This document shows, in pieces, positions 2,570 through 59,446 of a stretch of DNA of 64,000 bases. Source of the stretch: a bacterium (GTDB lineage Bacteria > Electryoneota > Electryoneia > Electryoneales > Electryoneaceae). A model generated the notes under the pieces. The model saw only the letters and a program-made list of their open reading frames with translations. It was not told where the DNA came from and did not search any database. Each line of letters starts with the position of its first letter. Position 1 is the stretch's first letter. The position numbers were made by a program, and so were the translations under genes. Location: positions 4,128,001 through 4,192,000 of the forward strand of contig OY769902.1 of NCBI GenBank assembly GCA_963669175.1. Direction: 5' to 3'.

Positions 2570-2631
2570 CTCACAGACGAGAATTCCGTTACAGGATTGG
2601 GTTATTTAACCGAAAGGGAACTTCCCGCTCC

Positions 2632-3861
2632 ATGACTATCCAGGAAAACGCACGAATCGGGTTGCAGGCACTCATGGCACAGAAAGTCCGTAGCTTTCTG
2701 ACCATGCTGGGGATCATTTTCGGAGTTGCGGCTGTTGTTGCGATGACATCCATCGGCGCAGGAGCACGTCAGGAATTGCTCGACGCCATTAAAGTGATGG
2801 GTGTAAACAACTTCATTGTACGTACTTCAGACTTGGATGGAGATGAATTAAACACTGCCATCGAACGCAATCCCAAGAAAATGAGTTTCGCCGATGTTGA
2901 GGCGCTTCGCACGATTGTAACTGAAGCACAGTTCATTGTCCCTGTCAGGGTGTATGAGAGTAAAACTCAGTTGCCTGCAGTTCAATCAGTCAATCTCGTT
3001 GGCACAACTCCTGAATACCAGAACCTGCAAGCGCTTACGCTGGTTGCCGGCAGGTTCCTGAAAGAGTCCGACATGACCAGCCGAGCTCCAGTGATTATTA
3101 TTTCGGAGAAGATGAAACGTGAGCTCTTCCCCCTGTCATCGGGACTGGGCGAGCAAGTCAAACTGCTGGACCAATGGTATACCATTGTTGGTGTCGTCCG
3201 CCCTCCTGTCAGCGGGAAGAGTATTCCCGGCATGGACATGCGTGATCTTCACGATGATATATACACTCCTATAAAAACGATGCAGGCGCGTGTCGCAGTG
3301 TCTCCGGAATCATCCCCTATCAGCGAGATCGTTATCCAGGCGCCGGACGAGAACCAGGTACGCATCACCGCTGCTGTTGTTTCTAGAGTGATAAAGCGAC
3401 GTCACCGTGATGCGAACGATTTCGAAGTCATTGTGCCGGTGGAATTGCTGAAACAGAGCCAGAAGACACAACGCATTTTCAACATTGTGATGGGAGCAAT
3501 CGCGTCCATTTCTCTGCTGGTCGGCGGCATCGGGATCATGAATATCATGCTCTCCAGTGTTCTCGAACGCACCCGTGAGATCGGGGTACGACGCGCCGTT
3601 GGCGCCACCCGAACCAATGTTGTCACGCAATTCCTGATTGAAGCGGTCATGCTGAGTGTGCTGGGTGGTTTTATCGGCATTGTCATCGGGGCTTTGATGG
3701 CGTGGCTGATCACCCTGTTCGCAGGTTGGACAACAGTACTGGGCATAAAAGCGGTAATTCTGGCTTTTGGCGTTTCTGCGGGAGTTGGCATCCTGTTCGG
3801 CTGGTGGCCAGCGAAAAAAGCCGCTGAAATGGATGTCATCAATGCGCTGCGATATGAGTAG
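2632..3861 (+). CDS. ABC transporter permease, MacB/FtsX family
   Basis: RSFLTMLGIIFGVAAVV and GGIGIMNIMLSSVLERTREIGVRRAVGA motifs, C-terminal ALRYE. Confidence 0.93.
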   Translation: MTIQENARIGLQALMAQKVRSFLTMLGIIFGVAAVVAMTSIGAGARQELLDAIKVMGVNNFIVRTSDLDGDELNTAIERNPKKMSFADVEALRTIVTEAQFIVPVRVYESKTQLPAVQSVNLVGTTPEYQNLQALTLVAGRFLKESDMTSRAPVIIISEKMKRELFPLSSGLGEQVKLLDQWYTIVGVVRPPVSGKSIPGMDMRDLHDDIYTPIKTMQARVAVSPESSPISEIVIQAPDENQVRITAAVVSRVIKRRHRDANDFEVIVPVELLKQSQKTQRIFNIVMGAIASISLLVGGIGIMNIMLSSVLERTREIGVRRAVGATRTNVVTQFLIEAVMLSVLGGFIGIVIGALMAWLITLFAGWTTVLGIKAVILAFGVSAGVGILFGWWPAKKAAEMDVINALRYE

Positions 3862-5419
3862 TAACTTGAACACACGAGCTACCATGTACAACTTTAAAAG
3901 ACATACAGCCGTATTTGTCCTGTTATTGCCGATACTGCTTGGTATGAGCAGCACGGGCATATCCCAGGGACAGGACACGCTGTTTATTGATCTGCGAATG
4001 GCGCTGGAACTTGCCTGGGAAGGCGCCCCGGATATGATATACAGTCAGCTCAACGACGAGTCTGCCCTGCTGAACATGAAGCTGGCCAAGGCCAATTATT
4101 ACTTCCCGCGGCTGGACATGAACCTTCAGACGCCTTCGCTGGAAGAAACCCAGACAGAAGCATCCGTCTATGATGCCACTGTGGGCGAGAATGTTTATAA
4201 ATGGTCCAGCACAAAATCACGCATGTGGTATGGTAACCTGGCGTTGTCACAACCTCTTCCGACTGGCGGTGACCTCAGCCTGGTGTCAACTTTTTATGAG
4301 AACTTCCGTAAAGACCAGTACGCAGATGATGAAACCCTTCGGAGCATGGCCTACAGGCTGGAGGTATCGCAGGATTTCCTGAACGGGAACCAGAGAAAAC
4401 GTGTCTACGACCGTGCCAAGCTCAGCTACGATCGAACCCGCTGGGGGTCCAGCCGTTCACGTCGCCAACTGGCCTACCAGATATTGCAGGCGTATTATTC
4501 TTTGCTGACCAGCCAGCGTTCACTCGAGATTTCCAGCGATGACCTGGAAGCCTCGAGTGAAATGGCGCAACTGGCAAGAAACAAGTATGAAGCCGGGCTG
4601 ATCCCTGAATCGGAAGCGCTGCAACTGGAAGTGGAAGTCCTTGAAAAAGAAGCCACTCTTGCTACAGAGGTCTCTACTCTGGCAACCAGCCTGGAAGCAT
4701 TCCGTATCACACTCGGGCTTGATCTGGACCGTCCTCTCAAGGTTATCGGCGCCCCCCAGTTCAATTCAATCTCAATTGACCTGGATAACTCTGTGGCGCT
4801 GGCGTTGGCAGAACGAGAGGATCTTCGTCAGCATGAGATCAATGTCGATCTGGCTGAATTTGATCTGAAAGACGCCAAACGTGACTATGGTCCCAGCGGC
4901 TCTATCAGCGCTTTTTACTACCTGGACAGACGTGAAGATCAGGAATGGAACGCCTTACTTAATACACCCCTGGGAGATTACCAGGTAAATCGAGGGGTTA
5001 CAGTAAGTTTTGCGGTTCCGATCTGGACTGCGGGCAGACGTAGCGCTGCCGTGCAAATGGCGAAAGTCGAATTGCGCCGAAGCCAGTTTGAAGAGGAAGA
5101 ATACAAACGCTCGATCATACTGGATGTCAGAAAATCCGTCCGTGAGATCGAAGAAGCCGAACGAAGGTATCAGACAAGCCTGCGCGCGCTGGAGCTGGCC
5201 GAGGTGTCCTATGGCCAGATGAAAGACCGGTTTGAGAACGGACAGGTGAGCGCCCGCGAATGGAGTGAATCCCAACTTGCCTTGAAACGTAGCAGAATCA
5301 ATGCTTTGAATGCTTTGATTGACCACTTGATGGCTGTTGCCGGGTTCCGTCTGGCGACCGGTCAGGATGTTGTTCCGTGGCAATCCGAAATGTCTGTTTC
5401 CCCACTTTCAGGGGATTGA
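3854..5419 (+). CDS. TolC-family outer membrane efflux protein
   Basis: Signal peptide and two OEP repeats (AYYSLL..; KYEAGLI; RFENGQVS). Start moved to the ATG overlapping the permease end; 3884 is an alternative. Confidence 0.88.
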   Translation: MSSNLNTRATMYNFKRHTAVFVLLLPILLGMSSTGISQGQDTLFIDLRMALELAWEGAPDMIYSQLNDESALLNMKLAKANYYFPRLDMNLQTPSLEETQTEASVYDATVGENVYKWSSTKSRMWYGNLALSQPLPTGGDLSLVSTFYENFRKDQYADDETLRSMAYRLEVSQDFLNGNQRKRVYDRAKLSYDRTRWGSSRSRRQLAYQILQAYYSLLTSQRSLEISSDDLEASSEMAQLARNKYEAGLIPESEALQLEVEVLEKEATLATEVSTLATSLEAFRITLGLDLDRPLKVIGAPQFNSISIDLDNSVALALAEREDLRQHEINVDLAEFDLKDAKRDYGPSGSISAFYYLDRREDQEWNALLNTPLGDYQVNRGVTVSFAVPIWTAGRRSAAVQMAKVELRRSQFEEEEYKRSIILDVRKSVREIEEAERRYQTSLRALELAEVSYGQMKDRFENGQVSAREWSESQLALKRSRINALNALIDHLMAVAGFRLATGQDVVPWQSEMSVSPLSGD

Positions 5420-5540
5420 TAACTGTTCTAAAAATATTATATTTACACAAGATACCTTTGTTCTTGATGGTTTCAATTAACCTGGCTACAATTCCTGTGT
5501 ACTTGCTAGAACTTCACACCGGGATACCCGGAGGTATTTC

Positions 5541-8500
5541 ATGTCGCAACGAAGTGCGTTAAAGAACGATTTAAGCAGGTATAAAAAGCTCGTAAAAAAA
5601 AATCCGCTGCTGTTTTCACGGGTTGCGGATATCGAGCTGAAGCTTGGACAGTACAAATCTGCTCGCAAACGCTTGGAAGATGGCCTGCGTTATCATCCCG
5701 ACCATTCGACGGGACGATTGCTGCTGGCCAAGGCGATGGAAAAAACCGGTTCACGTGAAGAGGCTATTGACGAACTGCGTACCCTGGTTAAACAGGAGCC
5801 AATGAATACCCGGGCAAGGCGTGAGTTTATCGCGGCCCTGACCGATTCCGGGCATACCGATGAATTACGACGCCAGATGTTCCAGCTTTACCAGATTGAT
5901 CCGGAAGACAAACAGAGTCGTAAAGGGCTTCGAACCCTGATCCTGGCAAAAGTCCGGGAAAAACACCCCAATATTCACGATTGGCCGGAAGAGTGGCTGC
6001 TTGCGGATTTTACCCGTGAAGGCGCGTTGGCCAAACGTGTAGCTCGTGACATGAACCTCGCAGAGGAACGCCCCTGCCCCCCGGACGATGTGGTTCCCGC
6101 GCTGGAAGACACCGATATCATCGATACCAAGGATGAATTGCGCAGACTGGGCGAACCGCTTGATCAACCATCTGTGGCAGCCCCGAAAAAACAACCTGAC
6201 ACTCCTGAAACTGCTGTTGAGGTCAGCCAGGAAGACCTCGATGAAACCATGCATGGCGAACTTAATACTCCAGAAGAATGGCAGCTCGATAAACAGGAAG
6301 CTACCGGTACGGTAACAACCGAACCGGTTGAAGAAATTGGTGACGAGGCGACGGAAGCAGATGAGGATGATTCCGCCCTTGCTGCATTGCAGGCGGATAT
6401 GGCGGCAATGCAGTTCGATCAGGAAAAACATGCTGCACCAACAGAAATGAAAGATGAAACACTAGTGGGAGATGAAGCTTCAACTGTTGCCACCTTTGAT
6501 GTGGAGCCGTTGCCGGATGACACCGAAGCGGAAGCGGGAATGATGGCTGAACCTGCGGATGAAACGGTTCTGGAAGCTGAAACAAGTGTTGATGAAGAAG
6601 TAACAACCATTGAAGAACCTGGCATTCCGACAGAAGAGGCTGACGACACATCGCTGGAAGATGAAGAAACGGATGAAACTGAAGACGAGGAACAAGAGGA
6701 AGAGGAAGAGGAAGAGGAAGAAGAGGAATATAACCCGGTCAAGGAAGCGCTAAGAGCTGCCGGACTTGAACCGAAAAATTATGTAGACGTTAAGAAGTTG
6801 CTTGCTTTGACTGAGCAGGAAGAACCGTCATTAATCCAGAAACCTTCCATAAAGAAGGCTGCCAAACGCCAGAAACCAGCCCCGACAGAAGAAAAACCGG
6901 TAGATGACGCTGAGGCCGCAACTGCCCCGGTTCAGTTGCCCGCAGATCAAGAGCAGAAATCGGCCGCAGAAGATAAAGCTGGCGATGAGTCAGGAAAAAC
7001 TGCACCGGCTGAAACGGATGCCGCAACGCAGCCGGAAGAACAGACACCTCAGGTAGAAATTGATGACCTGGACACCTCATTCTCGAAATCGGATATTGAC
7101 TCGATGTTTAAGGAAGCTGGCATTACAAGCAAAGAAGAACTTCAACAGATGCAAAAAGAAGAACACGAAGAATTGAAACAAGAGGATTCAAGCGAAACCA
7201 TCGAGCCGGGTGATATAGAAGAAGAGAAACCGGAAGAGCCTGCTCCTGCCGATGTCCCGGAAGCAACAGATACTGAATCCGCTGATTTCAACCAGGCGGA
7301 TCTGAATGCACTGTTTGATCAAAAACAGGATGATGAGGATAGCAGCTCCTTCAGCCAGGACGATATCAACGCGCTTCTGAAAGGTGGCGCATCGAAACCC
7401 GAACCCGCGCCCGAACCGGAAGAGGAACCCGCCCCATCCGCAGGCGGAGGATCGTTCAGCCAGGACGATATTGACGCACTCCTGAAAGGCGGCGCATCGA
7501 AACCCGAACCCGAGCCGGAACCTGAGCCCGAACCGGAAGAAGAACCTGAACCGTCAGCAGGTGGCGGCTCCTTCAGCCAGGATGATATCGACGCGCTTCT
7601 GAAAGGCGGCGCTTCCAAACCGGCCCCCGAACCCGAACCGGAAGAAGAACCTGAACCGTCAGCAGGTGGCGGCTCCTTCAGCCAGGACGATATTGACGCA
7701 CTCCTGAAAGGTGGCGCATCGAAACCCGCGCCCGAACCGGAAGAAGAACCAGAACCGTCAGCAGGTGGCGGCTCCTTCAGCCAGGATGATATCGACGCGC
7801 TTCTGAAAGGCGGCGCTTCCAAACCGGCCCCCGAACCCGAACCGGAAGAAGAACCAGAACCGTCAGCAGGTGGCGGCTCCTTCAGCCAGGATGATATCGA
7901 CGCGCTTCTGAAAGGCGGCGCATCGAAACCGGAACCCGAGCCAGAACCCGAGCCTGAACCGGAAGAGGAACCCGCCCCGTCAGCAGGTGGCGGTTCCTTC
8001 AGCCAGGACGATATCGACGCGCTTCTGAAAGGCGGCGCATCGAGACCGGAACCGGAGCCAGAACCTGAAGAGGAACCCGCCCCATCAACAGGTGGCGGTT
8101 CCTTCAGCCAGGATGATATTGATGCACTCCTGAAAGGTGGCGCATCGAAACCCGAACCCGAACCGGAAGAGGAACCCGCCCCATCCGCAGGCGGAGGATC
8201 GTTCAGCCAGGATGATATTGACGCACTCCTGAAAGGCGGCGCATCGAAACCGGAATCCGAGCCCGAACCGGAAGAGGAACCGGCCCCGTCAGGAGGTGGT
8301 GGTTCGTTCAGCCAGGATGATATTGACGCACTCCTGAAAGGTGGCGCATCGAAACCGGAACCCGAGCCCGAACCGGAAGAGGAACCGGCCCCATCCGCAG
8401 GCGGAGGATCGTTCAGCCAGGATGATATTGACGCACTCCTGAAAGGCGGCGCATCGAAGCCAGAGCCAGAAGAAAATGAAATGTCCCAAGCCGCTGCACG

Positions 8501-9593
8501 TACGCTTCAGGAATTGGACGCGAACGATGACTTTGATTTCGAAATCGGGTTCAGCCAGGATGACCTTGATGAATTGATTCAGGCCAAGAAAGAAATGGAT
8601 CGAAAGCCGGCAGCGCCTCCTTCACTTGGTCAGAAGGGGCCGCTAGGTCAGGATGACATCTCGGCCCTGTTTGCCAACCGAAGCCAGGTAAAAACTGAAG
8701 AGCCTCTGGCTGAACAGAAAGCAGAAAAACCTGTCGAAGATATCCCCGTTGAAGCAGTCGGTAACACAGGCAAGCCATTCAACCAGGACGATATTTCTGC
8801 ACTCTTCAGCCAGGTGAAGGAAAAAGGACAGGAAGCACACGAAGAGTTGGTGGAAGAATCGCTGGAAGACGAGCAACCGACTTCAGTTGCAGATATCATG
8901 AACGCCGCGCCGGATGAATCCCCAGTGGAAATGGCGGCCAGTGAGGCTGAAGCAATCGAAACTGAGACTGATAAAGTTGTACCAGTTGAAGAAGAAGAAG
9001 AAGTAGCAGCCGAAACGCCTGAAGCAGATGAAGCTCAGGAAATTGCAGCTTCGGAAGACATGCCTGTATCGCCATCAAAAACAACCCTGTTCAACCAGGA
9101 TGATATCAACTCCCTGCTTCGTGACATGGGCAGTATTCGTAGATCCGGTCCCAAACCGACTATTTCGCAAACCTTGTCCCAACCTCCCGCTGAACCGGAA
9201 ATACCGGAAGAAGCTGCGGAAGAAGTTGAATTGGCCGCAGAGCCGGTTATTGAGAAAGCTGCCGCCCAGAAAGATCCAGATGGCAGGTTTGACCTTGATC
9301 AATGGTTCCATTCCAAGCAGGATGATCAGGAAGCCGGCCCGACGCCCGAGAAGCCTTTGCCCAAACCGGCAAAGCCCCAGCCCCCTGTTGGGCAAGCGGG
9401 GACAAGCGCGCGCAAGGCCGTATTGCGTGGACCGGTCACAAAGACATTTGCGCGCCTGTTGTTGAAACAGGGCCACTCAGACCTTGCCTCTATCATTGCA
9501 CACCGGTTGTATTTGTTGAACCCGGAAGACCCGGAAGTGATTGATCTCCTGGCCGAGTCCATCTCCGGTATGGAAGAACCGGACGTCGAGTAG
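5541..9593 (+). CDS. Large acidic TPR protein with an array of SQDDIDALL motifs
   Basis: N-terminal TPRs, C-terminal TPR-like segment (VTKTFARLLLKQGH..LNPED), long acidic disordered middle; RBS GGAGG upstream. Confidence 0.85.
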   Translation: MSQRSALKNDLSRYKKLVKKNPLLFSRVADIELKLGQYKSARKRLEDGLRYHPDHSTGRLLLAKAMEKTGSREEAIDELRTLVKQEPMNTRARREFIAALTDSGHTDELRRQMFQLYQIDPEDKQSRKGLRTLILAKVREKHPNIHDWPEEWLLADFTREGALAKRVARDMNLAEERPCPPDDVVPALEDTDIIDTKDELRRLGEPLDQPSVAAPKKQPDTPETAVEVSQEDLDETMHGELNTPEEWQLDKQEATGTVTTEPVEEIGDEATEADEDDSALAALQADMAAMQFDQEKHAAPTEMKDETLVGDEASTVATFDVEPLPDDTEAEAGMMAEPADETVLEAETSVDEEVTTIEEPGIPTEEADDTSLEDEETDETEDEEQEEEEEEEEEEEYNPVKEALRAAGLEPKNYVDVKKLLALTEQEEPSLIQKPSIKKAAKRQKPAPTEEKPVDDAEAATAPVQLPADQEQKSAAEDKAGDESGKTAPAETDAATQPEEQTPQVEIDDLDTSFSKSDIDSMFKEAGITSKEELQQMQKEEHEELKQEDSSETIEPGDIEEEKPEEPAPADVPEATDTESADFNQADLNALFDQKQDDEDSSSFSQDDINALLKGGASKPEPAPEPEEEPAPSAGGGSFSQDDIDALLKGGASKPEPEPEPEPEPEEEPEPSAGGGSFSQDDIDALLKGGASKPAPEPEPEEEPEPSAGGGSFSQDDIDALLKGGASKPAPEPEEEPEPSAGGGSFSQDDIDALLKGGASKPAPEPEPEEEPEPSAGGGSFSQDDIDALLKGGASKPEPEPEPEPEPEEEPAPSAGGGSFSQDDIDALLKGGASRPEPEPEPEEEPAPSTGGGSFSQDDIDALLKGGASKPEPEPEEEPAPSAGGGSFSQDDIDALLKGGASKPESEPEPEEEPAPSGGGGSFSQDDIDALLKGGASKPEPEPEPEEEPAPSAGGGSFSQDDIDALLKGGASKPEPEENEMSQAAARTLQELDANDDFDFEIGFSQDDLDELIQAKKEMDRKPAAPPSLGQKGPLGQDDISALFANRSQVKTEEPLAEQKAEKPVEDIPVEAVGNTGKPFNQDDISALFSQVKEKGQEAHEELVEESLEDEQPTSVADIMNAAPDESPVEMAASEAEAIETETDKVVPVEEEEEVAAETPEADEAQEIAASEDMPVSPSKTTLFNQDDINSLLRDMGSIRRSGPKPTISQTLSQPPAEPEIPEEAAEEVELAAEPVIEKAAAQKDPDGRFDLDQWFHSKQDDQEAGPTPEKPLPKPAKPQPPVGQAGTSARKAVLRGPVTKTFARLLLKQGHSDLASIIAHRLYLLNPEDPEVIDLLAESISGMEEPDVE
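7345..8475 (+). repeat. 11 intragenic tandem repeats (~99-117 bp) encoding SFSQDDI(D/N)ALLKGGASKP(EP)nEEEP(A/E)PSAGGG
   Basis: Counted directly; units differ in the number of EP dipeptides and at synonymous positions. Confidence 0.95.
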
Positions 9594-9612
9594 AACGGGG
9601 AGAAATTCCGTT

Positions 9613-10218
9613 GTGAAGACACTTCCTGCGATTGGTCTGACAGGTAATATCGGATGTGGAAAATCAACCGTAGCTGCTGTCTGGCAGGAGCTGGGCGCAA
9701 CGATCATCGACGCTGACCAGGTTGGACGTGATGTTGTTGCTTTCGAGACTGAATACCTGGACTGGCTGAAAGATCGGTTTGGGACGAGTATATTCTCCGG
9801 TGACGCACTGAATCGTGCCGTACTGGGCCGAATTGTCTTTTCTGATAAGCAAGCGCGAGATGATATGAATCATCACATCTGGCCTTTTATCAGCCAACGC
9901 CTATCCGACGCTATAACATCAGCCCGATCCGGTGAACAAATTCCTGTAGTCGATGCTGCCTTGATTTTTGAATGGCAGGACGCATCGCGTTATGACGAAA
10001 TTGTCGTTGTAACTTGCGATGTTGATCAGGCCATTGCGCGTGCAGCCATACGAATGAATCTTACCGTCGATGAGATGCGGGACCGTTCCAGGAGCCAGAT
10101 TTCACAGGAGGAAAAAGCGGCTCGTGCGCACTACGTTTTGCAGAATACCGGAACGCTAAGAGAATTGAAAGAAAAAGCGGCACATTATTGGCATGATTGT
10201 GTCGCGCGTTTTTCTTGA
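9613..10218 (+). CDS. coaE: Dephospho-CoA kinase
   Basis: IGLTGNIGCGKST P-loop, IIDAD, LNRAVLGRIVF, VVDAALIFE; GTG start chosen. Confidence 0.93.
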   Translation: MKTLPAIGLTGNIGCGKSTVAAVWQELGATIIDADQVGRDVVAFETEYLDWLKDRFGTSIFSGDALNRAVLGRIVFSDKQARDDMNHHIWPFISQRLSDAITSARSGEQIPVVDAALIFEWQDASRYDEIVVVTCDVDQAIARAAIRMNLTVDEMRDRSRSQISQEEKAARAHYVLQNTGTLRELKEKAAHYWHDCVARFS

Positions 10219-10284
10219 GAAATTCTGACAAACCTGGTTTTGGTCTCTCAGGTTGCCATGCCAGGTTATTTGGAGGGGAAACAG

Positions 10285-11871
10285 GTGCGGGGTTTACAAC
10301 GTCTTGCAATTATCCTGATGCTATGTGCTGTATTTGTTTCAGTGCAGGCTCAGACCGACGGTGATCCTCAGGATCAACGGGAAGATGCTACCGCCCCACC
10401 GCCGCAAATTGCCGGGGAGCTGGAGCTGGAGAAGGCCCTGTCGGAGCGGCTTGAAGAGATGCTTCAGCCACTGGTCGGACCAACGGTGGTCATGGTGGAC
10501 ATCACCCTCGGTGAGGTGCCCGTTGAATTGCAGGGGTACATTTACAGCCAGTCTCGCAGTCTGCCGGGATTACCGGTTTCAGTGAGTGAAGATGTTCGCA
10601 GAATGCAGGAATCCGGCTGGTATTTCAGTGAGATATCCAAAACCATTATTCATGTATTTGTTTCGGGATCCATGTCGGAACGTGAGATTGAACGTATACA
10701 CGAACTGATCCCGATCTGGATTTCTATCAATTCCAGTCGCGGTGACCAGATTATTATTGAACGATCACCATTCATCAATCCCCCGTTGACCCTTATTCAG
10801 TATCTATACTCGAAGCGAGGGTTGTGGACCGCAATCCTTATCCTTGCAGGCCTGATTGTGCTTGCCGGAGTTGTCTACTCCGCGATTTCCAGGTTTTCGC
10901 GCTACCGTATGGTGGAATCACCTGTCGGCCATGAGCAGGAAGGCGGCGGCGCTAGCATGTCCACCACAGACCTCGCCAAATTGTTGGGAATGGCAATGGG
11001 CGGTGGCAGCGGTGCTGGTGGTGTTGGCGGAACCGCGCCCGGCGGTGGCGTTGGCGGCGGGTCCGGCGGCGTTGGCGGCGGCGGTATTGGCGGCGGCGCT
11101 GGCGGTGCTGGTGGCGTTGGCGGAGGCGCTGGTAGCGATGCTGCGATATTGAGTCTGCCTGATGGTGAGATTCCCATCCGAATTGTGCGCGACAAGGAAT
11201 CAGAGGGGAAAAACCGTGGTGTTCTGGCAAAAGTAGCCAACATGAACGCACTTAGCCTCCTCAAATTGATCGAAGGAGAGAGCCCTGACTTTGCAGCGCT
11301 GGCGTTAACCTCGGCCAAGCCTGACATTGCCGGTAAAATTATTGGTGAACTACCGGAACAACAGAGAAAAGAGATCCTGGCTTATTGGGATATCCTGGAG
11401 AAAAACGATGCGGACAAGATCAACCAGATGGTTGAGCGTATCCGCAAGAAGCATACAACAGTCAGCTCTGTAGCCATTTCTCTTGGCGATGGGACCGCGA
11501 AGCTTTCGAACATCATCAACGCTCTGCCTGATCGTGAAGCGCAGGAACTTTACGCCAGCCTGACCAATGCTGATCCCGCCCTGGCAAAGCGTGTGCGCAA
11601 GAGTGTATTCTTCCTCAGCGACTTGATGAACCTGGAAGAGGCCACACTGAAACGTGTTGTTCTGCGTCTCCCGAACCCGACGCTCGCAGCTCTGATATCT
11701 ACTGCTTCAGATGATGTAAAGAATGTCGTATTCGCTTGTCTGTCACGACGGGCGATCAACATGGTGTCTGAGGAAATGGCCATGCGTCGTTCCAAGTCAC
11801 GTGACCGCATAGCCGAAGCAAAACGCACCTTCCTGGATACGTTGCAGCAGGTGCAGGAAACCAGTTTGTGA
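10285..11871 (+). CDS. Putative FliF(ring domain)-FliG fusion rotor protein
   Basis: Signal peptide; FliF-like segments (LEEMLQPLVGP..VDI; INSSRGDQIIIERSPF); one TM helix; Gly-rich linker; FliG middle (ESPD for EHPQ) and C-terminal domain (DPALAKRVRKSVFFLSDL..LSRRAINMVSEEM). GTG start follows GGAGGGG. Confidence 0.78.
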   Translation: MRGLQRLAIILMLCAVFVSVQAQTDGDPQDQREDATAPPPQIAGELELEKALSERLEEMLQPLVGPTVVMVDITLGEVPVELQGYIYSQSRSLPGLPVSVSEDVRRMQESGWYFSEISKTIIHVFVSGSMSEREIERIHELIPIWISINSSRGDQIIIERSPFINPPLTLIQYLYSKRGLWTAILILAGLIVLAGVVYSAISRFSRYRMVESPVGHEQEGGGASMSTTDLAKLLGMAMGGGSGAGGVGGTAPGGGVGGGSGGVGGGGIGGGAGGAGGVGGGAGSDAAILSLPDGEIPIRIVRDKESEGKNRGVLAKVANMNALSLLKLIEGESPDFAALALTSAKPDIAGKIIGELPEQQRKEILAYWDILEKNDADKINQMVERIRKKHTTVSSVAISLGDGTAKLSNIINALPDREAQELYASLTNADPALAKRVRKSVFFLSDLMNLEEATLKRVVLRLPNPTLAALISTASDDVKNVVFACLSRRAINMVSEEMAMRRSKSRDRIAEAKRTFLDTLQQVQETSL

Positions 11872-11881
11872 GGAAACGAGC

Positions 11882-12637
11882 ATGAAGCTTACATCTTTGT
11901 TTGGTCTGCTCATGGGCCTCGGACTGGTATTCGTTGCAATCATTTCCCGTGGCAGTCTGCTGCAGTTTATCAGTATTGAGTCCATCTTTATTGTGCTGGG
12001 TGGCACTGTCGGCGCCACTCTGCTGTCCTTCAACCGGGATCAGCTTGAAATTGCAATCCGCGCAATTCGTGTCGTCTTCTTCGATACCACTCCCCCACCG
12101 GATAACCTGATCCCGATTATGGTGGACCTGGTAAAACAGGCGCGTGTGAATGGTGTTGGTTCATTGGAAGTTCCTGAAGGCGAGGGCGAACGAAATGAGT
12201 TCCTCCACAAAGCAGTGGACATGCTGATTGACGGTATTGAACCGAGTGTCGCCGCTCAGATTTTGCAGGGCGAATCGGACGCTATCGCATCACGCTATCG
12301 TATGAGCGAGCGACTGTTCACAGTCATGGGCACATATACCCCTCTGTTCGGATTGTTGGGCACAGTCATCGGTCTGATCATCATGCTTTCCAGCGTAAAT
12401 GATCCCATGGCTATCCCGGGCGCGATGGCGGTTGCCATGTTGACCACATTTTACGGCGTTCTGTTCAGCGCCATGATTTTCCGTCCCATGGCGACCAAGA
12501 TTCGCGCATGGAACTATGATGAAATCCAACTGCGTGACCTGATTATCGAAACCATGATGCACATTTCTGAAGGTGTCAACTCGCAGATTTCGCAGGAACG
12601 TCTGCAATCGCAGTACCGTACCCGGAGGCGTGGCTAA
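11882..12637 (+). CDS. motA: Stator A subunit (MotA/PomA/MotP family)
   Basis: SIFIVLGGT, ARxxGxxxLE, PLFGLLGTVIGLI and AMLTTFYG motifs. Confidence 0.92.
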   Translation: MKLTSLFGLLMGLGLVFVAIISRGSLLQFISIESIFIVLGGTVGATLLSFNRDQLEIAIRAIRVVFFDTTPPPDNLIPIMVDLVKQARVNGVGSLEVPEGEGERNEFLHKAVDMLIDGIEPSVAAQILQGESDAIASRYRMSERLFTVMGTYTPLFGLLGTVIGLIIMLSSVNDPMAIPGAMAVAMLTTFYGVLFSAMIFRPMATKIRAWNYDEIQLRDLIIETMMHISEGVNSQISQERLQSQYRTRRRG

Positions 12638-13338
12638 TGGCAGGCCCTCGTCGCTGGAATCCCAAGAGAAGACGGGTCATCGAACCGGAACATGAAGGTG
12701 AACCCTGGCTGACCACGTATGGCGACCTGATGACGTTGCTGCTGGTGTTCTTTGTCCTGTTCTACATCTTTTCCGTAACGGGGCAAATGCCTTTCCTGAA
12801 AGAAGCGTTTGAACGCTTCCAGATGAAATCGGAAGCGCCCGCCGCACTTGACGCACAGGAATTTGAACAGATCGAGGAAGCCGGTGGTGAAATCGTCATT
12901 TCAATCCCTTCCAACGTCCTGTTTGACCTGGGACAAGCTGATATCAAACGGGAAGCGATGTATGTTTTGCAGGATGCGGTAAAACAGATCAAAGATCATT
13001 TGATAGATGCGCCACATGCGCAGATACGTGTGGAAGGCTACACCGACAACCTGCCGATCCATAATTACCAGTTCCGTTCCAATTGGGAACTCTCGGCTGC
13101 TCGTGCTATTGCTGTGGTTAAATACCTGATTGAAATTGAAGGATTTAAGCCCGAGCGTTTGCAGGCTATGGGGTATGGTGAGTACAACCCTGTCGTTCCG
13201 AATGATACCGCGGAAAACCGTCAGAAGAACCGTCGTGTTGAAATCAAGATTGTCAAATCTCCCGTTGACCAGAGCTTTGACGAGCTTTCCACGGGCGCAC
13301 CTTCTGGATTCCCATCGCAACAGGCGAGGAACGAATGA
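12637..13338 (+). CDS. motB: Stator B subunit (MotB/PomB/MotS family)
   Basis: WLTTYGDLMTLLLVFFV transmembrane helix with the conserved Asp; OmpA-like domain (VEGYTDN, NWELSAARA, NRRVEI). Confidence 0.93.
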   Translation: MAGPRRWNPKRRRVIEPEHEGEPWLTTYGDLMTLLLVFFVLFYIFSVTGQMPFLKEAFERFQMKSEAPAALDAQEFEQIEEAGGEIVISIPSNVLFDLGQADIKREAMYVLQDAVKQIKDHLIDAPHAQIRVEGYTDNLPIHNYQFRSNWELSAARAIAVVKYLIEIEGFKPERLQAMGYGEYNPVVPNDTAENRQKNRRVEIKIVKSPVDQSFDELSTGAPSGFPSQQARNE

Positions 13339-16300
13339 AGCGGGTACGCTGGCATCTTTTCCTGTTGCTTTTTCTTCCGCTCTGCACGTTTGCTCAGAGC
13401 CGGATTGATCTCTCCCCCTGGCCGGGAAACATGGCCTGGTTTGGTGAAGGCACCCAGCGTGTCGGTGTCGCCATCGCCTCCGGTGATATGAATGGCGACG
13501 GTCTCTGGGATGTGGCCATTTCAGCGCCGGGCACAAGAAACAACTCCGGTGATGTATATGTATTCCTGGGCGATGGAGTCACGTTCGATTCAGTTCGTTT
13601 TGATAATCCCGCTGCAGAAGCCAACCTTGTCATAGAGGGTACTGCCGGGTTACAGATCGGTGTCAAGCTGGTGATGGGTGATCTGAACGGTGACGGACGT
13701 GACGATCTGGTCATCGGCGCGCCCCATGCCGACGACAGTCGCGGACGAGTCTGGGTTATCTTCGGCAGCGCATCTCCTTCCGGGACGGTTACTGAACCGG
13801 ATGTTGAAATCTTCGGCAGTGCGGACGGCGATCACTGTGGACGCGCCATTGGTATTACCAACATCGGTGACGATGCCTACAACGACATTGTCATCGGCTC
13901 CCCCAATGCAGACCCTCGCCAGCGAGACAGCGCGGGACGTGTTGATGTTATCGCCGGACGGGCTTCCTGGCCGGAAAACATATCCCTTTCTACACAGGCA
14001 TCGACTGTAACCGTATTTGGCGGCCAGACCGGTGAACAACTGGGTGAAGCCATCAGCGTCTGCCCCATTTTCCAGGGGACATTACTGGGCAACAACCTTA
14101 ACGGCGACGGGTATGGCGACCTGATTATCGGCGCTCCGGGACGAACCTACGCAGGGCGTACTGGCGCTGGCGCTGTCCATATTTTCGTCACCCCGGAAAG
14201 CCTGGCAGATACGGTAGACCTTACCACTGACAACGTCCCACTTCTGCAAGACTACCGTCAGCTCGGCGGCGCACAGACCCTGGATCTGACCGGCCGCGCT
14301 ATCGCTTCGTTTAACACAACGGGAATTCGTGGTGTCCTGATCGGCGCTCCGGCAGCGTTGCAGGACGGAGTGCGTGGCGGCGCTTTTTATTATATCACCT
14401 GGGATGAGATCAACACGGCCGCTCCTTGGGCAGATCTTCGGCAGGCAACCTACTTCCGGGTGAAATTTACCGGCGCGGCGGAGGATGATTCACTCGGCGC
14501 AGCGGTTGCAGGTATTGATGAGCTGATGATGGCGGCAGCGCCCGGGGCGAATTACCGGGCACGGGAAGAAGCCGGGCAGGTGGTTGCGATAACCGACAAC
14601 CCGATTCTGACAGGCATAATCCGTGTCGATACCCTTGACGCCAATGTCCGTCACTTTTTCGGTGCCGGTGCGGGCCATGACCTCGGTCGCTCACTGACCA
14701 TTGCTGATCTCGATGACGATGGCATCTTTGATCCCATCATGGGATCACACTCCCATACAGACTATGCCGGGGCTGTTCACGCCGTACGTGGCGGGCTGCC
14801 CTATTTCTTCAACATTTACCCGGCGCCGGGACAGGGAAATATTCCCAGCGAAGATACCCTGTCTTTCCGCATCAGTGATGATGAAACAGGAATTGCGACA
14901 GCCAGTTTTATCATGATCCTGGATGGCATCACGTACAACATTAACCATCCTGGTGTCAGCTACGAGATGAACGACGGGATCTATTCCTTTGAGCTGGTCC
15001 CGGAAGAACCCTTTGATATCAATGTTCCGATCAACGTGATCACCCATATCACAGACACACAGGGTAACCGTTCACCGCTCTGGTATTACCAGTTCATCAC
15101 CGGTCAGGATGTCACTGCGCCGTATCCCACTCAATTCTCCCCCGCACCGGGCGAAGTAAATGTCGCGACCACACGTGACATCGCCTTCAGTCTGCGTGAT
15201 GCCGGAGATGGTGTTGACAGCACGACAATCATGGTCGTGATTGATACGGATACGGTCCGCCAGGGCGATCCAGAGATGAGAATCAGCGGTTCCATTTCCA
15301 ATTACCGTGTCGTGATCAATCCCGAGTCTTCCTTGCCGCCAGACGCACAGATTGACGTACGAATTGAAGCGGCTGACCTTACGGAGCCATCCCCCAATTG
15401 GATGACACCGTACGATTATTTCTTCTTTACCTCACTAGATACAATTCCGCCGGAACTGGTTTTCATTTACCCGGAACCGGGCGTAACGATTGATGTCGGA
15501 ACCAAAATCAATTTCAGAATCATTGATACCGGATCAGGGGTAAATGCAGATTCTACCAAAATCCTTCGCACTCAGCAAAGTGGTGAAGAATACGGCGATC
15601 TGTTATTCGAAGCCATCTCACAGGGATACGCGTTCGTTCATAATCCTGAGAATAATCCCTATGATTCCGGGCTGTTGCAACTGACGGCACAATCACGTGA
15701 CCTGGCTGATGATCCCAATATCATGGAGGATTCAACCTGGTCCTATAATGTCATTGTGGATAACCGTGCGCCTGAACTGACTGAAGCGATACCGCACCCG
15801 GATAGTGTGGGATCAGCACGAAACACGCCGATTACCCTGACCATCATGGATAACGCGGCGGGGATCGACTCCACCACCTTGCAACTCGAAATTGATAATG
15901 TCTTTATCGCCCATCGCAATATCATCTGGGAACGCATCGAGCATCTTGGTTACCGGATTACCTACCAGCGTTCAGAAGGCATATACGGCGACAGTGTGAT
16001 CGTCCACCTGAACGTGTTTGACAAAACAATCCCGGACGGTATCGAACTGGATACCACATATATTTTCTATCCCGAGAACGATGATGAGCCGCCTTATTTC
16101 CTACTGGTTGATCCGCCGCAGGGATCGGAAGGTGTATCTGTGGAAGATTCCCTGATATGGGAAGCCGCGGACGACATGACCGGAATCGACCCATCCAGCG
16201 CCTACATCTCGATCAACAATGCGGACCATTCCGTACTGTTGCGATACAATACCCACCCTGTCACCCAGGGCGCACAATACAGGTTCGTCTATACTCCGCC

Positions 16301-18005
16301 GTTATCGCTGCCTTATGAGGATACGGTCAGTGTCCGCTTCGGCATCAGTGATAACGAGGAACCGTCCAATGACGCGATCCTCGTGTATGAGCTGTTTACC
16401 GAGCCGGATGAATACCCGCCCTACCTGACCAATTTGAGCCCGTATCCGGGACAGATCGGCGTATCTCGTGGCGCGGATATCGTGTTCCATGTTCTGGACG
16501 CCGGGGTTGGTGTGGCGCGTGATTCGCTGCATCTCGCCATTGATGGAATCGCCGTAGCCAATGAGAACATCTACTGGGAAGAGGTTGAACAGGGATATGC
16601 TTTCCGTTACAATCCGCCTGGTCTGTTCGGTCATACGGATACAGTGCATGTATCCGTGACCTGCTATGACCTGGCAACCTCACACAACCGTATGGATGAA
16701 TCTTACTGGTTTGTCACGCTCCGAGATGACCGTGAACCTCCCTACATGGAAGAGGAACAACCGGCTGATTCTTCCGGAGGTGTATCACCAGATATTATCC
16801 TCAGTTTCGACCTGAAGGATGACGGCGAAGGTGTCGATACCAGCTATACTACAATCCAGAACATGGACGATCCCCTCTGGATAGCGACACGTGAAGTAAC
16901 ACCTATCATCAACGGTTTCCACTATGTGCTGGCCCCGGCAACCGATTTCCTGTACAGCGATACGGTGACGATCGGCGTGAACGCTCGTGATCTTGCAGAA
17001 CCGGCGAATGTGACACCGAATCCGTTGACATTCTCTTTCTACACCCAGTTGGATGACGCTTCCCCCTTCTTTACCGAGCTGCAACCTGCGCCGGACTCTA
17101 GTATTACCTATAACCGTCCAGTCAGCTTTGAAGTTATCGATATGCTCGCCGGGGTTGACACATCCGATGTCCACATCTTCATTGATTCGGAAGAAATCAC
17201 GAATAACAGTGACGATTACGAAATCCTTATCGAGGAAACAGCCGACGGCTGGCGGTATACCTATACGCCGTACGATGGTTGGAATGTGAGCACAACCTAT
17301 TCTGTGACGCTTTCCGCTGCCGACTATTCCAATATTCGCAACGAGATCGATTCAACCTACCAGTTTGAGGTCATTCCTGACCTGGTCGCGCCGTATGTAA
17401 ATAGTTTTGCGATTGTCCGACTGGTTAACGATACTCTTGCTGTGGTTGACAGCACCAGCATCACCCTTGACGATTACCTCTATTTCGAAGTGCTGGATGA
17501 CGGCATCGGGGTAGATGCGAATTCGATCCGTCTCGAACTGGGCGGACGTAACGCCCCGGAACCAGTTCTTACCCAGGAGCTGGAAACCGGTTACTATCGT
17601 GTGTACCGATTGAGCGACTGGAATTCTGTCGGTCCACAGTACCTATTCCCCGGCCAGCAGGTGCAGGCATATATCAGCGCTCGCGACCTGTCGGTTCCGG
17701 AAAACACGCTGACTCGTGACAAGCATACGTTCTATATTCCACCTCCCGATGTGGAGCTGCTGGTCATTCCAACGACCATTACTCCGAACGGTGACGGTGT
17801 CTGGGATGAAGCGCTGATCTATCATAAGGGATCTTCATCGGCTTCCGTGGATTTCTTCGACATGCGCGGGCGTAAAGTTGCTACAGTCCAGGGCAACCCG
17901 GCAAGCTGGAACGGCAACGATGACAGCGGCGAACCCGTACCGGGTGGATTATACATCTTCCAGGTCAGCGGCGGTGGCCAGGGCACAATTGCGGTGGCAC
18001 GATGA
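13335..18005 (+). CDS. Large surface protein: FG-GAP beta-propeller, ~9 Ig-like repeats and gliding-motility-associated (T9SS type B) C-terminal domain
   Basis: Signal peptide; GDxNGDGxxDxxIGAP repeats; recurring DxxPP..PxPG..F.I.D..GVD units; C-terminal ITPNGDGVWD..FDMRGRKV..WNG..GLYIF. Confidence 0.85.
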   Translation: MKRVRWHLFLLLFLPLCTFAQSRIDLSPWPGNMAWFGEGTQRVGVAIASGDMNGDGLWDVAISAPGTRNNSGDVYVFLGDGVTFDSVRFDNPAAEANLVIEGTAGLQIGVKLVMGDLNGDGRDDLVIGAPHADDSRGRVWVIFGSASPSGTVTEPDVEIFGSADGDHCGRAIGITNIGDDAYNDIVIGSPNADPRQRDSAGRVDVIAGRASWPENISLSTQASTVTVFGGQTGEQLGEAISVCPIFQGTLLGNNLNGDGYGDLIIGAPGRTYAGRTGAGAVHIFVTPESLADTVDLTTDNVPLLQDYRQLGGAQTLDLTGRAIASFNTTGIRGVLIGAPAALQDGVRGGAFYYITWDEINTAAPWADLRQATYFRVKFTGAAEDDSLGAAVAGIDELMMAAAPGANYRAREEAGQVVAITDNPILTGIIRVDTLDANVRHFFGAGAGHDLGRSLTIADLDDDGIFDPIMGSHSHTDYAGAVHAVRGGLPYFFNIYPAPGQGNIPSEDTLSFRISDDETGIATASFIMILDGITYNINHPGVSYEMNDGIYSFELVPEEPFDINVPINVITHITDTQGNRSPLWYYQFITGQDVTAPYPTQFSPAPGEVNVATTRDIAFSLRDAGDGVDSTTIMVVIDTDTVRQGDPEMRISGSISNYRVVINPESSLPPDAQIDVRIEAADLTEPSPNWMTPYDYFFFTSLDTIPPELVFIYPEPGVTIDVGTKINFRIIDTGSGVNADSTKILRTQQSGEEYGDLLFEAISQGYAFVHNPENNPYDSGLLQLTAQSRDLADDPNIMEDSTWSYNVIVDNRAPELTEAIPHPDSVGSARNTPITLTIMDNAAGIDSTTLQLEIDNVFIAHRNIIWERIEHLGYRITYQRSEGIYGDSVIVHLNVFDKTIPDGIELDTTYIFYPENDDEPPYFLLVDPPQGSEGVSVEDSLIWEAADDMTGIDPSSAYISINNADHSVLLRYNTHPVTQGAQYRFVYTPPLSLPYEDTVSVRFGISDNEEPSNDAILVYELFTEPDEYPPYLTNLSPYPGQIGVSRGADIVFHVLDAGVGVARDSLHLAIDGIAVANENIYWEEVEQGYAFRYNPPGLFGHTDTVHVSVTCYDLATSHNRMDESYWFVTLRDDREPPYMEEEQPADSSGGVSPDIILSFDLKDDGEGVDTSYTTIQNMDDPLWIATREVTPIINGFHYVLAPATDFLYSDTVTIGVNARDLAEPANVTPNPLTFSFYTQLDDASPFFTELQPAPDSSITYNRPVSFEVIDMLAGVDTSDVHIFIDSEEITNNSDDYEILIEETADGWRYTYTPYDGWNVSTTYSVTLSAADYSNIRNEIDSTYQFEVIPDLVAPYVNSFAIVRLVNDTLAVVDSTSITLDDYLYFEVLDDGIGVDANSIRLELGGRNAPEPVLTQELETGYYRVYRLSDWNSVGPQYLFPGQQVQAYISARDLSVPENTLTRDKHTFYIPPPDVELLVIPTTITPNGDGVWDEALIYHKGSSSASVDFFDMRGRKVATVQGNPASWNGNDDSGEPVPGGLYIFQVSGGGQGTIAVAR

Positions 18006-19453
18006 GAAGGCGTGGATTATCAAGAGGCCTGCAAGTCCTGATCAGCGTTTCACTGCTGGTTCTGCTGTTCTCCGCCCTGCCGACTCATGCGGCGTTTGAA
18101 GTGCTTCCGGGTAAACGTGCAACCGCGCTAGGCGGCGCTGTAGTGGCATCCGGCGGCGATCCGATGGGCTTCTACATCAATCCAGCCTCGATTGCCTGGG
18201 GCACAGTCACCTCGGTTGAAACCTTCTACATGAAGCCATTCTGGGGACTCGACGGCGATGCGCTGTCACGTTCGGCGATAAGCGGTTACGGCAGCCTCGG
18301 CGACTGGGGCGCTATCGCGCTTGGTTATGACCAGTTCGGCAGCGATCTATATAGTGAAAACCGTACGCTGTTGAGCTATGCCCGTAAACTCACGATGTAC
18401 GAACGCATGTTCACCGTGGGCGTTTCGCTTGAATTCCTGGGCCGCAAATATGCCGAGACAGAATATACCGCCATCGACCCGCTGTTCATTGAATATGGCT
18501 ATTCCAAGCGTTCTGTAGGTATCGACATCGGCATGCAGATGCGCCTGACCTCACGTATGACTGCGGGGCTGGCAATCCGTCGTATCAACAAACCGAACCA
18601 GGCGCTGGAAGACGGTGTGGATGATCCGCTGCCCCGTGAAATCCAGGCGGGTGTATCCATGCGCTTCACCCGTTTCATGCTGTATACGGATATTGAGTAC
18701 CGCGACCGTTCGCTCAACGGTGCAGACGTTTCGCCTCGACTGGGCGTAGAATTTCCGCTGTTCAACAATGCGCTGCACTTGCGTGGCGGCGGCAACCGAG
18801 ACGAAGTTGCGCTTGGCTTCGGGCTGAATATCTGGAAACACGACAGCGAAAAGAGCTACATGAGCAGTGCGGATGAGTCCGGCGCTCGTGAACGCAGGCG
18901 CGATATCAAAAACGCCACTTTGCGTGTCGGGTATACGTTCCGCTTCCCTATCGGAGGTGTGAGCGGCACTATCGGCCACCATATGCTGGGTATCGATTTT
19001 TACTTCGAACGGAAGCGTACGGTAATGGAACGGGTGCGTCAACCGCGTCCGGTCCAGGTGCCCCAGATTATCGTGGAAACGGATACGGTGCTGGTCGAGA
19101 AACCGGTGCTGGTGCATGAATTCGTTGAAGACACCAGCAAGGTGGAACTGCTCGAGGCCCGGATCACCGACCTTGAATCACAGCTTTCCCAACTGGTAAA
19201 CATGAACACGGCCATCCGTGAAGTGGAAATCGCTCAACGCCTGTTCTTGCAGAAAAACTACCAGGAAGCCCTGAATGCCTGCGACCGTGCCACCCGCCTC
19301 GTCCCCACACTGGCCCTCGCCTGGGTACAGAAAGGCTCGATCTACTACGCTATGGGACGCTACGGCGATGCCCGGACCGCGTGGAACCGAAGCCTGCGCC
19401 TCGATCCGAAACGGGATGATGTGAGGCAGTATTTGAAGCAGTTGCCGGAGTAA
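18002..19453 (+). CDS. PorP/SprF- or PorV-like outer membrane beta-barrel with C-terminal coiled coil and TPR
   Basis: Signal peptide, GKRATALGGA..FYINPASI motif, amphipathic strands ending GHHMLGIDFYF, then TPR (AWVQKGSIYYAMGRYGDA..LDP). Confidence 0.75.
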   Translation: MRRRGLSRGLQVLISVSLLVLLFSALPTHAAFEVLPGKRATALGGAVVASGGDPMGFYINPASIAWGTVTSVETFYMKPFWGLDGDALSRSAISGYGSLGDWGAIALGYDQFGSDLYSENRTLLSYARKLTMYERMFTVGVSLEFLGRKYAETEYTAIDPLFIEYGYSKRSVGIDIGMQMRLTSRMTAGLAIRRINKPNQALEDGVDDPLPREIQAGVSMRFTRFMLYTDIEYRDRSLNGADVSPRLGVEFPLFNNALHLRGGGNRDEVALGFGLNIWKHDSEKSYMSSADESGARERRRDIKNATLRVGYTFRFPIGGVSGTIGHHMLGIDFYFERKRTVMERVRQPRPVQVPQIIVETDTVLVEKPVLVHEFVEDTSKVELLEARITDLESQLSQLVNMNTAIREVEIAQRLFLQKNYQEALNACDRATRLVPTLALAWVQKGSIYYAMGRYGDARTAWNRSLRLDPKRDDVRQYLKQLPE

Positions 19454-30769: not shown

Positions 30770-30897
30770 ATCTCCATTCCCCAGAACATGGTAGCCATTA
30801 AAAATAATTGTGGATGTATTAAGGAACAAACCATGATTATTATGAATTCTGTCTCCCGGGATATATTCATGTCCCAATAACACTCATTTCTATTGAT

Positions 30898-59345: not shown

Positions 59346-59400
59346 CGTAAACTCCTATATTACAAATGGACACAGTACTCCTGAAGTACTGTTTTTCTGC

Positions 59401-59446
59401 GCTGGACGGGTTCGTGGGCAAACGAGTCCCCGTCCAGCTTTTTTTT
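59401..59446. terminator. Hairpin between the two T9SS-A genes (T-tract on the plus strand)
   Basis: GCTGGACGGG ... CCCGTCCAGC followed by TTTTTTTT. Confidence 0.55.

Follow-up and report, generated by a model that had tools for sequence, protein, structure and literature searches.

The scaffold gene and its product

The DNA considered here is a 64-kb stretch of contig OY769902.1 from a bacterium of the Electryoneota, hereafter the window. Our subject is one open reading frame (ORF) in it, whose product we call the scaffold. The scaffold joins a folded head of tetratricopeptide repeats (TPRs) to a long acidic region that bears 17 copies of a short motif, and this motif resembles the peptide with which the flagellar switch protein FliM docks CheY. 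Genes for a flagellar-type rotor and stator follow on the same strand. The parts of the scaffold gene, with residues given as amino acids (aa), are as follows.

5416..5492, + strand: two sigma-70-like promoter matches directly 5′ of the ORF (10/12 and 9/12 consensus matches)
5541..9593, + strand: scaffold ORF, 1350 aa; soluble; net charge -223
5541..6110, + strand: folded N-terminal TPR head, aa 1-190 (Pfam TPR_19/TPR_14, AlphaFold, conservation in 6 orthologues)
6111..7079, + strand: acidic low-complexity linker, aa 191-513, unalignable among orthologues; a poly-Glu run lies inside at 6681-6728
7080..7316, + strand: dispersed motifs 1 and 2 (aa 514-523, FSKSDIDSMF; aa 583-592, FNQADLNALF), from the motif scan
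7345..8465, + strand: tandem array, 11 units of 33-39 aa (Tandem Repeats Finder and motif scan)
8550..9119, + strand: dispersed motifs 14-17 (aa 1004, 1035, 1080 and 1184), from the motif scan
9426..9554, + strand: conserved C-terminal TPR-like hairpin (LRGPVTKTFARLLLKQG...NPEDPEVIDLL), from the alignment of 5 orthologues

The promoter matches are to the consensus only, and the promoter type of the Fibrobacterota–Chlorobiota–Bacteroidota (FCB) group may differ.

The original prediction, made from the sequence without database searches, spoke of a TPR protein, and the head bears this out. Pfam TPR_19 matches aa 33-93 (E=3.1e-11), and an AlphaFold model of aa 1-200, built on an alignment from six orthologues, has a mean pLDDT (predicted local distance difference test score) of 92.5. 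The head has four repeats, and the model shows eight TPR-type helices followed by an ordered, conserved extension (W148, W152, D156, G161). Among solved structures, it comes closest to consensus TPRs, the OGT TPR domain, MamA and RPAP3, and an ESM Atlas look-up with the head leads to generic TPR clusters. Tandem helix-turn-helix TPR repeats are thus indicated by Pfam, by the model and by the fold matches alike.

A head of this kind might bind the scaffold's own acidic motifs, one head and 17 ligands per chain giving a self-associated network. The fold matches do include peptide-binding TPRs, e.g., RPAP3 with an acidic Hsp90 tail peptide. However, most of the proteins with motif arrays described below (FliL, FliM, FliY, CheZ and zinc-ribbon forms) have no cytoplasmic TPR. 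It follows that the partner of the motif must be one shared by all carriers, and we consider self-association most improbable. The scaffold C-terminus (window 9570-9590) reads MEEPDVE. MEEVD tails are ligands gripped by peptide-binding TPR domains; as the scaffold tail is not conserved in the orthologues, the likeness is probably due to chance.

Between head and hairpin, the protein consists of about 1100 residues of disordered, acidic low complexity, and its overall composition is 16% Glu, 10% Pro and 9% Asp. The last ~45 residues form the TPR-like hairpin, with the conserved block GPxTKTFAxLxLxQG...NPDDxE. The block is found again in the proteins P0049 and P0056, and Pfam TPR_19/TPR_14 match it in P0018 and P0049. 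Neither a signal peptide nor a membrane segment is seen in the scaffold translation. Pfam and NCBIfam scans match no LysM, FliM, CheC or SPOA domain in it (PF02154, PF04509 and PF01052 unmatched). The FimV C-terminal model, which we take to be part of the NCBIfam library scanned, matches neither the whole scaffold (E<=0.01) nor three C-terminal pieces of it (E<=10), where weak generic TPR matches are the only ones.

The motifs and the tandem array

About 17 FliM/CheZ-like motifs had been noticed between 7070 and 9125, namely 11 tandem units and six variants. A motif scan recovers all of them: there are exactly 17 sites, spanning nucleotides 7080 to 9119, 11 in tandem and six dispersed, and all 17 conform to the pattern L-S-Q-x-E-I-D-A-L-L. 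The tandem motifs start at aa 604, 639, 678, 713, 746, 781, 820, 855, 888, 923 and 958; ten read SFSQDDIDALL and one reads SFSQDDINALL. The dispersed motifs are FSKSDIDSMF (514), FNQADLNALF (583), FSQDDLDELI (1004), LGQDDISALF (1035), FNQDDISALF (1080) and FNQDDINSLL (1184). In 5000 shuffles of the protein, the mean number of matches was 0.03 and the maximum 2. For the six sites outside the array, the shuffle mean was 0.026, and no shuffle reached six. Translated in six frames, the remainder of the window gives 152 further segments (35,069 residues), with one match among them.

The tandem units share the layout SFSQDDI(D/N)ALLKGGAS(K/R)P, a Pro/Glu spacer and then SAGGG. In Tandem Repeats Finder, the array spans 7345-8458, with a period of 105 nt, 10.5 copies and 82% matches, and a 426-nt super-period with 2.6 copies is also reported. 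The unit lengths, in order, are 35,39,35,33 / 35,39,35,33 / 35,35 aa. This recurrence of 35,39,35,33 indicates that the array grew through duplication of a four-unit block.

The copies have since diverged. Their 69-nt cores have a mean identity of 87%, and 9 of the 16 core codons (SFSQDDIDALLKGGAS) show synonymous variants among the 11 copies. The array is therefore no echo of assembly. Over the same 16 codons, the protein sequence changes only once, from D to N in copy 1. Synonymous variation with a single replacement indicates that each copy is under purifying selection as protein. Minus-strand ORFs across the repeats (e.g., 7319-7822) are regarded as repeat by-products.

Relation of the motif to CheY-docking peptides

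Profile A2 was built from 15 motif units of the scaffold family only. In a local search, it scores residues 4-27 of E. coli FliM at 21.4 bits, above the 6-18 bits that it gives to the units of P0049 and P0056, two orthologues that took no part in its training. The E. coli K-12 FliM record starts MGDSILSQAEIDALLNG, and that of CheZ ends ASQDQVDDLLDSLGF. The CheZ C-terminal peptide (ASQDQVDDLL) scores below 5 bits. Since the profile scores FliM and leaves the CheZ peptide unscored, the likeness is to the FliM/FliY form. Thus, of the FliM/CheZ-like character first proposed for the motifs, the FliM part stands, whereas E. coli CheZ's own peptide is not recognized.

The same profile was run against 177,635 PDB sequences. 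The ranking, taken after setting aside five designer-repeat artefacts (flank columns only) and one myosin light chain, brings up residues 4-25 of Salmonella FliM (8umd_C, E=0.12) and a 20-residue FliM peptide (4iga_B, E=0.17), neither significant by itself (E above 0.1). Both are among the best matches that consist of a single stretch, and both coincide exactly with the CheY-docking peptide. A PDB sequence search with raw repeat units matched only Pro/Glu low complexity.

Textbooks present the CheY-docking peptide of FliM, FliY or CheZ as a tether that each protein has in one copy. One paper (PMC6946799) describes the EIDAL peptide as the CheY-binding site on FliM, of which FliN and FliY hold full or degenerate copies, and phosphorylated CheY (CheY-P) as the ligand common to the FliM, FliY and CheZ peptides. 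To judge from these sequence likenesses, the assignment of the scaffold motif to the FliM/FliY EIDAL type is supported, and the motif would be expected to bind CheY-P.

The scaffold motif and the FliM/FliY peptide share the pattern [LF]-S-Q-x-[DE]-I-D-A-L-L; in many cases, a basic or polar residue comes next and then Gly. Both lie in a flexible, disordered segment. In contrast, FliM and FliY have one terminal copy, and the scaffold has 17 internal copies on a carrier that is a TPR protein only. The CheZ C-terminal peptide resembles the scaffold motif in being a short, acidic amphipathic helix with a hydrophobic end, but CheZ has a phosphatase domain and the scaffold has none. Because it has no switch or phosphatase domain, the scaffold falls outside the FliM, FliY and CheZ families. 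Nor does it have the domains of FliM: Pfam finds neither the CheC-like middle domain, with which FliM contacts FliG, nor a C-terminal SPOA domain, so the scaffold is not a structural part of the flagellar cytoplasmic ring (C-ring) in any known way. ChePep of Helicobacter is a very acidic, largely disordered chemotaxis accessory protein that itself carries a receiver domain; EIDAL repeats are not known in it.

Motif arrays on other proteins

Profile A2 was also searched against 1.84 billion representative proteins. It matched 482 protein clusters at E<=1e-3, of which 134 also pass E<=1e-10, and every cluster has several stretches that match. Array sizes in these multi-EIDAL clusters range from 3 to 21 copies, set in low-complexity spacers. 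A Pfam scan covered 149 of the best 150 clusters; the remaining one, P0058, is the scaffold orthologue of locus L002 (see below) and was scanned as the locus translation.

Proteins of the switch and its phosphatase are among the carriers. Switch domains (FliM, FliMN_C or CheC) occur in 7 of the best 150 clusters. P0104 is a FliM (PF02154, 109 bits) bearing five N-terminal motif copies, P0099 a FliY (NCBIfam model, 451.6 bits) with 5 copies, and P0139 the N-terminal half of a FliY. P0062, P0124, P0144 and P0151 are FliN-type proteins with several copies each. Four of the best 150 (P0054, P0085, P0112 and P0154) are CheZ-like, with the catalytic D...Q segment and 4-7 C-terminal copies. Some motif units also match known peptide segments directly, i.e., those of P0023 and P0026 match the CheY-binding tail of the Pfam CheZ profile (positions 182-202), and those of P0003 and P0023 match N-terminal positions 4-40 of the NCBIfam FliY model. 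When ten array proteins were looked up by cluster, one had a name, P0104 (FliM/FliN family).

The carrier met most often among the best 150 combines an array in the cytoplasm with one membrane helix and a FliL-like domain. Pfam recognizes the FliL domain beyond the helix in 4 of the 150, and a hidden Markov model seeded on the FliL-positive proteins retrieves 41. In a second frequent class, the helix is followed by a conserved domain of ~210 aa without a name (e.g., P0035, P0038). Further carriers include membrane proteins whose part beyond the helix holds TPR, Big_9 or ankyrin domains, zinc-ribbon proteins of the MJ0042 type, and small stand-alone arrays such as P0078 and P0100, with 3-4 motifs within 94-137 aa and no other domain. 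We found no description of multi-copy EIDAL arrays in the literature searched, most subscription journals lying outside its scope.

The FliL fusions and the multi-copy FliM, FliY, FliN and CheZ proteins thus carry the same motif, in arrays, as the scaffold does. They differ in the anchor, which is a membrane helix with FliL (41 of 150) or a switch or phosphatase domain in these proteins, but a soluble TPR head and a hairpin in the scaffold. The arrays are probably the same functional module.

The motif could also serve as a docking array for an ATPase of the FlhG/MinD type, controlling the placement and number of motors. The EIDAL peptide in FliM and FliY doubles as the FlhG-binding site, and, according to PMC12826062, FlhG interacts with FliM/FliN via the FliM N-terminus. 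A whole-scaffold search recovered motif-sharing proteins, including P0004, named FimV by a source, with acidic repeats of the D-D-I-E-A-L-L type. HubP/FimV hubs recruit FlhG. The four CheZ-like proteins with C-terminal arrays speak against this explanation, as the known partner of that peptide is CheY-P; we know of no role of the CheZ peptide with FlhG. In addition, no MinD/ParA-type gene is seen among the 49 ORFs scanned in the window. An FlhG array is accordingly quite improbable.

P0004 bears on a further explanation as well, namely that the scaffold is a HubP/FimV-like acidic hub or spacer, with generic amphipathic helices on a disordered bristle that would organize a region of the cell or a condensate by making many weak contacts, with no specific receiver. 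Its composition and net charge would suit such a role, and the whole-protein search did match a FimV-named protein. In HubP/FimV proteins as in the scaffold, a very acidic repeat region precedes a terminal TPR-like hairpin, an arrangement that we take to be the HubP/FimV cytoplasmic layout. But the scaffold motif is far sharper than a matter of composition: it is a precise 10-residue pattern under purifying selection, and its profile scores the FliM peptide above divergent members of the scaffold's own family. HubP/FimV proteins have LysM, a membrane anchor and the FimV C-terminal domain, none of which is matched in the scaffold, and on this ground the scaffold is not a HubP/FimV. Among the 149 scanned best clusters, Pfam LysM matches none (E<=1e-4; E<=0.01 for four). 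We hold a generic hub to be rather improbable, and a polar hub, which had been raised as a possible role, finds no evidence here.

Orthologues and gene order

The scaffold gene is followed by a cluster of genes on the same strand.

9541..10218, + strand: coaE (dephospho-CoA kinase), Pfam CoaE E=1.2e-45
10240..11871, + strand: fusion of the FliF ring-building motif 3 (RBM3) with FliG, 543 aa (Pfam, BLASTP, model fold matches)
11882-12637, + strand: motA (MotA/PomA-like), from Pfam/NCBIfam scans
12637-13338, + strand: motB (plug and OmpA-like domain), from Pfam/NCBIfam scans
13335..19453, + strand: giant FG-GAP/Big_5 protein with a type-B (CHU_C) sorting domain of the type IX secretion system (T9SS), then a PorP/SprF-like outer-membrane protein fused to TPRs

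The scaffold gene thus stands two genes upstream of the motor, as first described, with coaE between it and the FliG-containing gene. The intergenic gaps in the cluster are small, and no terminator-like site was found in the + strand gaps up to 19453. As far as these weak signals go, the scaffold gene seems to stand first in a conserved operon.

Orthologues were gathered from gene neighbourhoods, through a genome scan with an alignment of FliG-like proteins, and from the profile A2 search. The FliG-like neighbour has few relatives, and the scan gave five loci (L001-L005), of which L002 is Candidatus Electryonea clarkiae, of the FCB group. The profile search added P0049 and P0056. When the TPR head by itself was used in a word-based homologue search, two generic TPR proteins and no orthologue were returned.

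The motif is present in 6 of 7 orthologues, with 17 copies in the window, 7 in L004, 3 in L002, at least 1 in L005 (partial), 10 in P0049 and 7 in P0056. A comparison of repeat counts across relatives had been proposed, with repeat number tuning avidity; the range of 1-17 copies seen in these sequences is compatible with such tuning. The seventh orthologue, that of L003, has no motif in its readable parts. About 34 of its residues are masked, and a masked run (N in the DNA, X in the translation) together with a frame change interrupts it at about 7300-7530. Within a genome, the repeat units are near-identical, and between genomes they differ (35-aa, 43-aa and 33-35-aa units). Thus, the arrays were expanded or homogenized separately in each lineage.

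The order TPR-acidic protein, coaE, FliG-like gene, motA, motB, giant FG-GAP protein, PorP/SprF-TPR is the same in L002, L003, L004 and L005. The sequence of L001 ends just upstream of the conserved cluster and is not usable for the order of the scaffold gene. coaE lies between the scaffold and FliF-FliG genes wherever sequence exists (L002 9126-9734, L003 9166-9792, L004 9207-9833, L005 1813-2442). Identity of the FliG-like proteins to that of the window is 36-39% for L002-L005 and 66% for L001, so the order has been kept across substantial divergence. The original prediction had cautioned that, with coaE in between, the linkage of scaffold and motor might be incidental. The preserved order, coaE included, in four loci argues that it is not.

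Genes for HlyD, MacB and TolC-like proteins precede the scaffold orthologue in L002-L005 where upstream sequence exists. The trio of HlyD-like, MacB/FtsX-like and TolC-like genes lies directly 5′ of the scaffold gene at 1259-5419 in the window, 942-5368 in L002 and 195-4369 in L004. No ATPase gene is seen beside the trio in the window.

The adjacent motor

The neighbour had been called a FliF-FliG fusion, a description that the domain evidence confirms. The protein starts with a hydrophobic helix, and a periplasmic alpha-beta-beta-alpha-beta domain (aa 58-176) comes next. One membrane helix and a Gly-rich linker then lead to the middle and C-terminal domains of FliG. Pfam scores FliG_C at 73.6 bits and FliG_M at 28.8 bits; BLASTP matches E. 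coli FliG and, weakly but in co-linear order, each half of E. coli FliF RBM3. A model of moderate confidence (mean pLDDT 59.9) finds FliG folds with E down to 3e-9 and FliF RBM3/S-ring chains with probability 0.9-1.0 (E=0.016-0.1). R504, E511 and E512, aligned to E. coli FliG R281, D288 and D289, are invariant, and the MotA retains the residues aligned to E. coli MotA R90 and E98. With RBM3 and FliG both indicated and the torque residues kept, FliF-FliG fusion is a fair name, and a working rotor–stator pair is plausible.

The ring-building domain carries a conserved insert of 36 aa (aa 92-127, YSQSRSLPGLPVSVSE) at what is presumably the place of the FliF RBM3 beta-collar. In place of the EHPQ of FliG, which we take to be the FliM contact, the fusion has AKPD, and its A359 and P361 do not vary among six sequences. 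Downstream, the giant FG-GAP/Big_5 protein has 1556 aa, and the adhesin and PorP/SprF genes are kept 3′ of motB in L001, L002, L004 and L005. The rotor–stator genes and T9SS cargo, at 10240-19453, resemble a flagellar-type motor tied to type IX secretion. We found no description of a natural RBM3-FliG/MotAB/T9SS-adhesin operon in the literature searched, which lay mostly outside subscription journals; it describes engineered FliF-FliG fusions only.

No FliM or FliN gene is present in the operon. To this extent, the idea of a missing FliM holds. However, in the metagenome-assembled genome of L002, other contigs carry genes for a canonical FliM, for a FliG and for two MotA, and a complete flagellar gene set is reported for this genome in PMC9324843. 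The cluster is thus not a flagellum that has lost FliM but the second motor of a flagellated lineage.

The presence of a canonical flagellar set, FliM included, in a relative with the same cluster allows another explanation, a free CheY-P sponge. Here, the 17 sites would buffer or localize CheY-P and so tune the canonical flagellar response, outside the neighbouring motor. All the motif evidence for CheY docking applies to it equally, and the small domain-less arrays P0078 and P0100 imply that arrays can act outside motor parts. It leaves unexplained, however, that the gene stands at the head of the FliF-FliG/MotAB/adhesin cluster wherever a locus extends far enough upstream, and that the scaffold conserves a TPR head and a C-terminal hairpin, which look like anchoring modules. 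A sponge is, in our judgment, unlikely.

A bolder proposal starts from the operon as a whole. It may encode a non-flagellar rotary machine derived from the flagellum, in which an RBM3-FliG ring turned by MotAB is coupled to the T9SS adhesin, and the scaffold is the chemosensory input replacing FliM/FliN. The operon would then specify a chemotaxis-steered motor for surface motility or surface remodelling in Electryoneota-like FCB bacteria. As a complete account, this is unlikely; were it true, EIDAL arrays would be a general, unrecognized means of raising the local level of CheY-P at motors, the FliL fusions included.

A proposed receiver-docking role at a second motor

The reading that we favour, though with no better than even confidence, is that the scaffold may act multivalently, docking a phosphorylated CheY-like receiver for the second, FliM-less motor. 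Each EIDAL helix would dock one phosphorylated receiver on its alpha4-beta5-alpha5 face, as the single FliM N-terminal copy does. The array would capture the receiver signal at high local density, with stiff Pro/Glu linkers spacing the helices within the tandem part, and the TPR head and the hairpin would hold the scaffold at or near the FliF-FliG/MotAB machine. Local receiver concentration at the motor would thereby be raised, which is the tethering job of the FliM N-terminus in the C-ring. By analogy, the scaffold would work like the FliM N-terminal tether multiplied 17-fold. As the operon supplies no FliM or FliN, the scaffold probably gives receiver docking to the second motor. We infer in this the binding of CheY-P, the attachment to the motor through the TPR ends, and any effect on rotation. 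A complex prediction that paired the TPR head (aa 1-190) and the cytoplasmic part of the FliG-like protein (aa 320-543), run without controls, scored 0.00 against a mark of 0.32 and is evidence neither way.

Several points weigh against a docking scaffold for the motor. Genes for a receiver, CheA, CheW, other che proteins, FliM or FliN are absent from the 64-kb window, in which 49 ORFs were scanned. The FliM peptide only tethers CheY, and switching requires the FliM middle domain and FliN; the scaffold comes with neither. The PDB matches to FliM are individually non-significant, and the E. coli CheZ peptide is scored too low to count. The L003 orthologue, motif-free in its readable parts, suggests that the family can exist without the motif. 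The acidic repeats of the FimV-named P0004 belong to a type for which we know of no CheY link. Finally, among members of a single phylum, part of the conservation of gene order may be owed to common descent and not to function.

The same peptide is amplified to arrays of up to about 20 copies in hundreds of clusters, on FliM, FliY, FliN, CheZ and, above all, the stator-associated FliL. If the arrays bind CheY-P, then multivalent local concentration would be a widespread, unnoticed design principle of chemotactic signalling. If, in addition, the scaffold serves the adjacent motor, this would be the first CheY input to a flagellar-type rotor without a switch complex, and it would offer a handle on the role of a stand-alone rotor–stator pair in a T9SS context.

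Other features of the window

Rfam and tRNA scans of the window found nothing. Just 3′ of the operon, at 19546-20675, genes for a small helix-turn-helix (HTH) protein and a PIN_10-domain protein overlap by 4 nt and look like a toxin–antitoxin pair; a similar-looking pair follows the operon in L001 (10755-11863). Three paralogues of ~375-420 aa, at 29615-32085 and 43086-44213, have a C-terminal HATPase_c/GHKL match only, with no HisKA or receiver recognized. On the minus strand, at 56316-62647, lie genes for two large beta-helix proteins with Por_Secre_tail (T9SS type-A) sorting domains, from which it follows that the organism uses type IX secretion.

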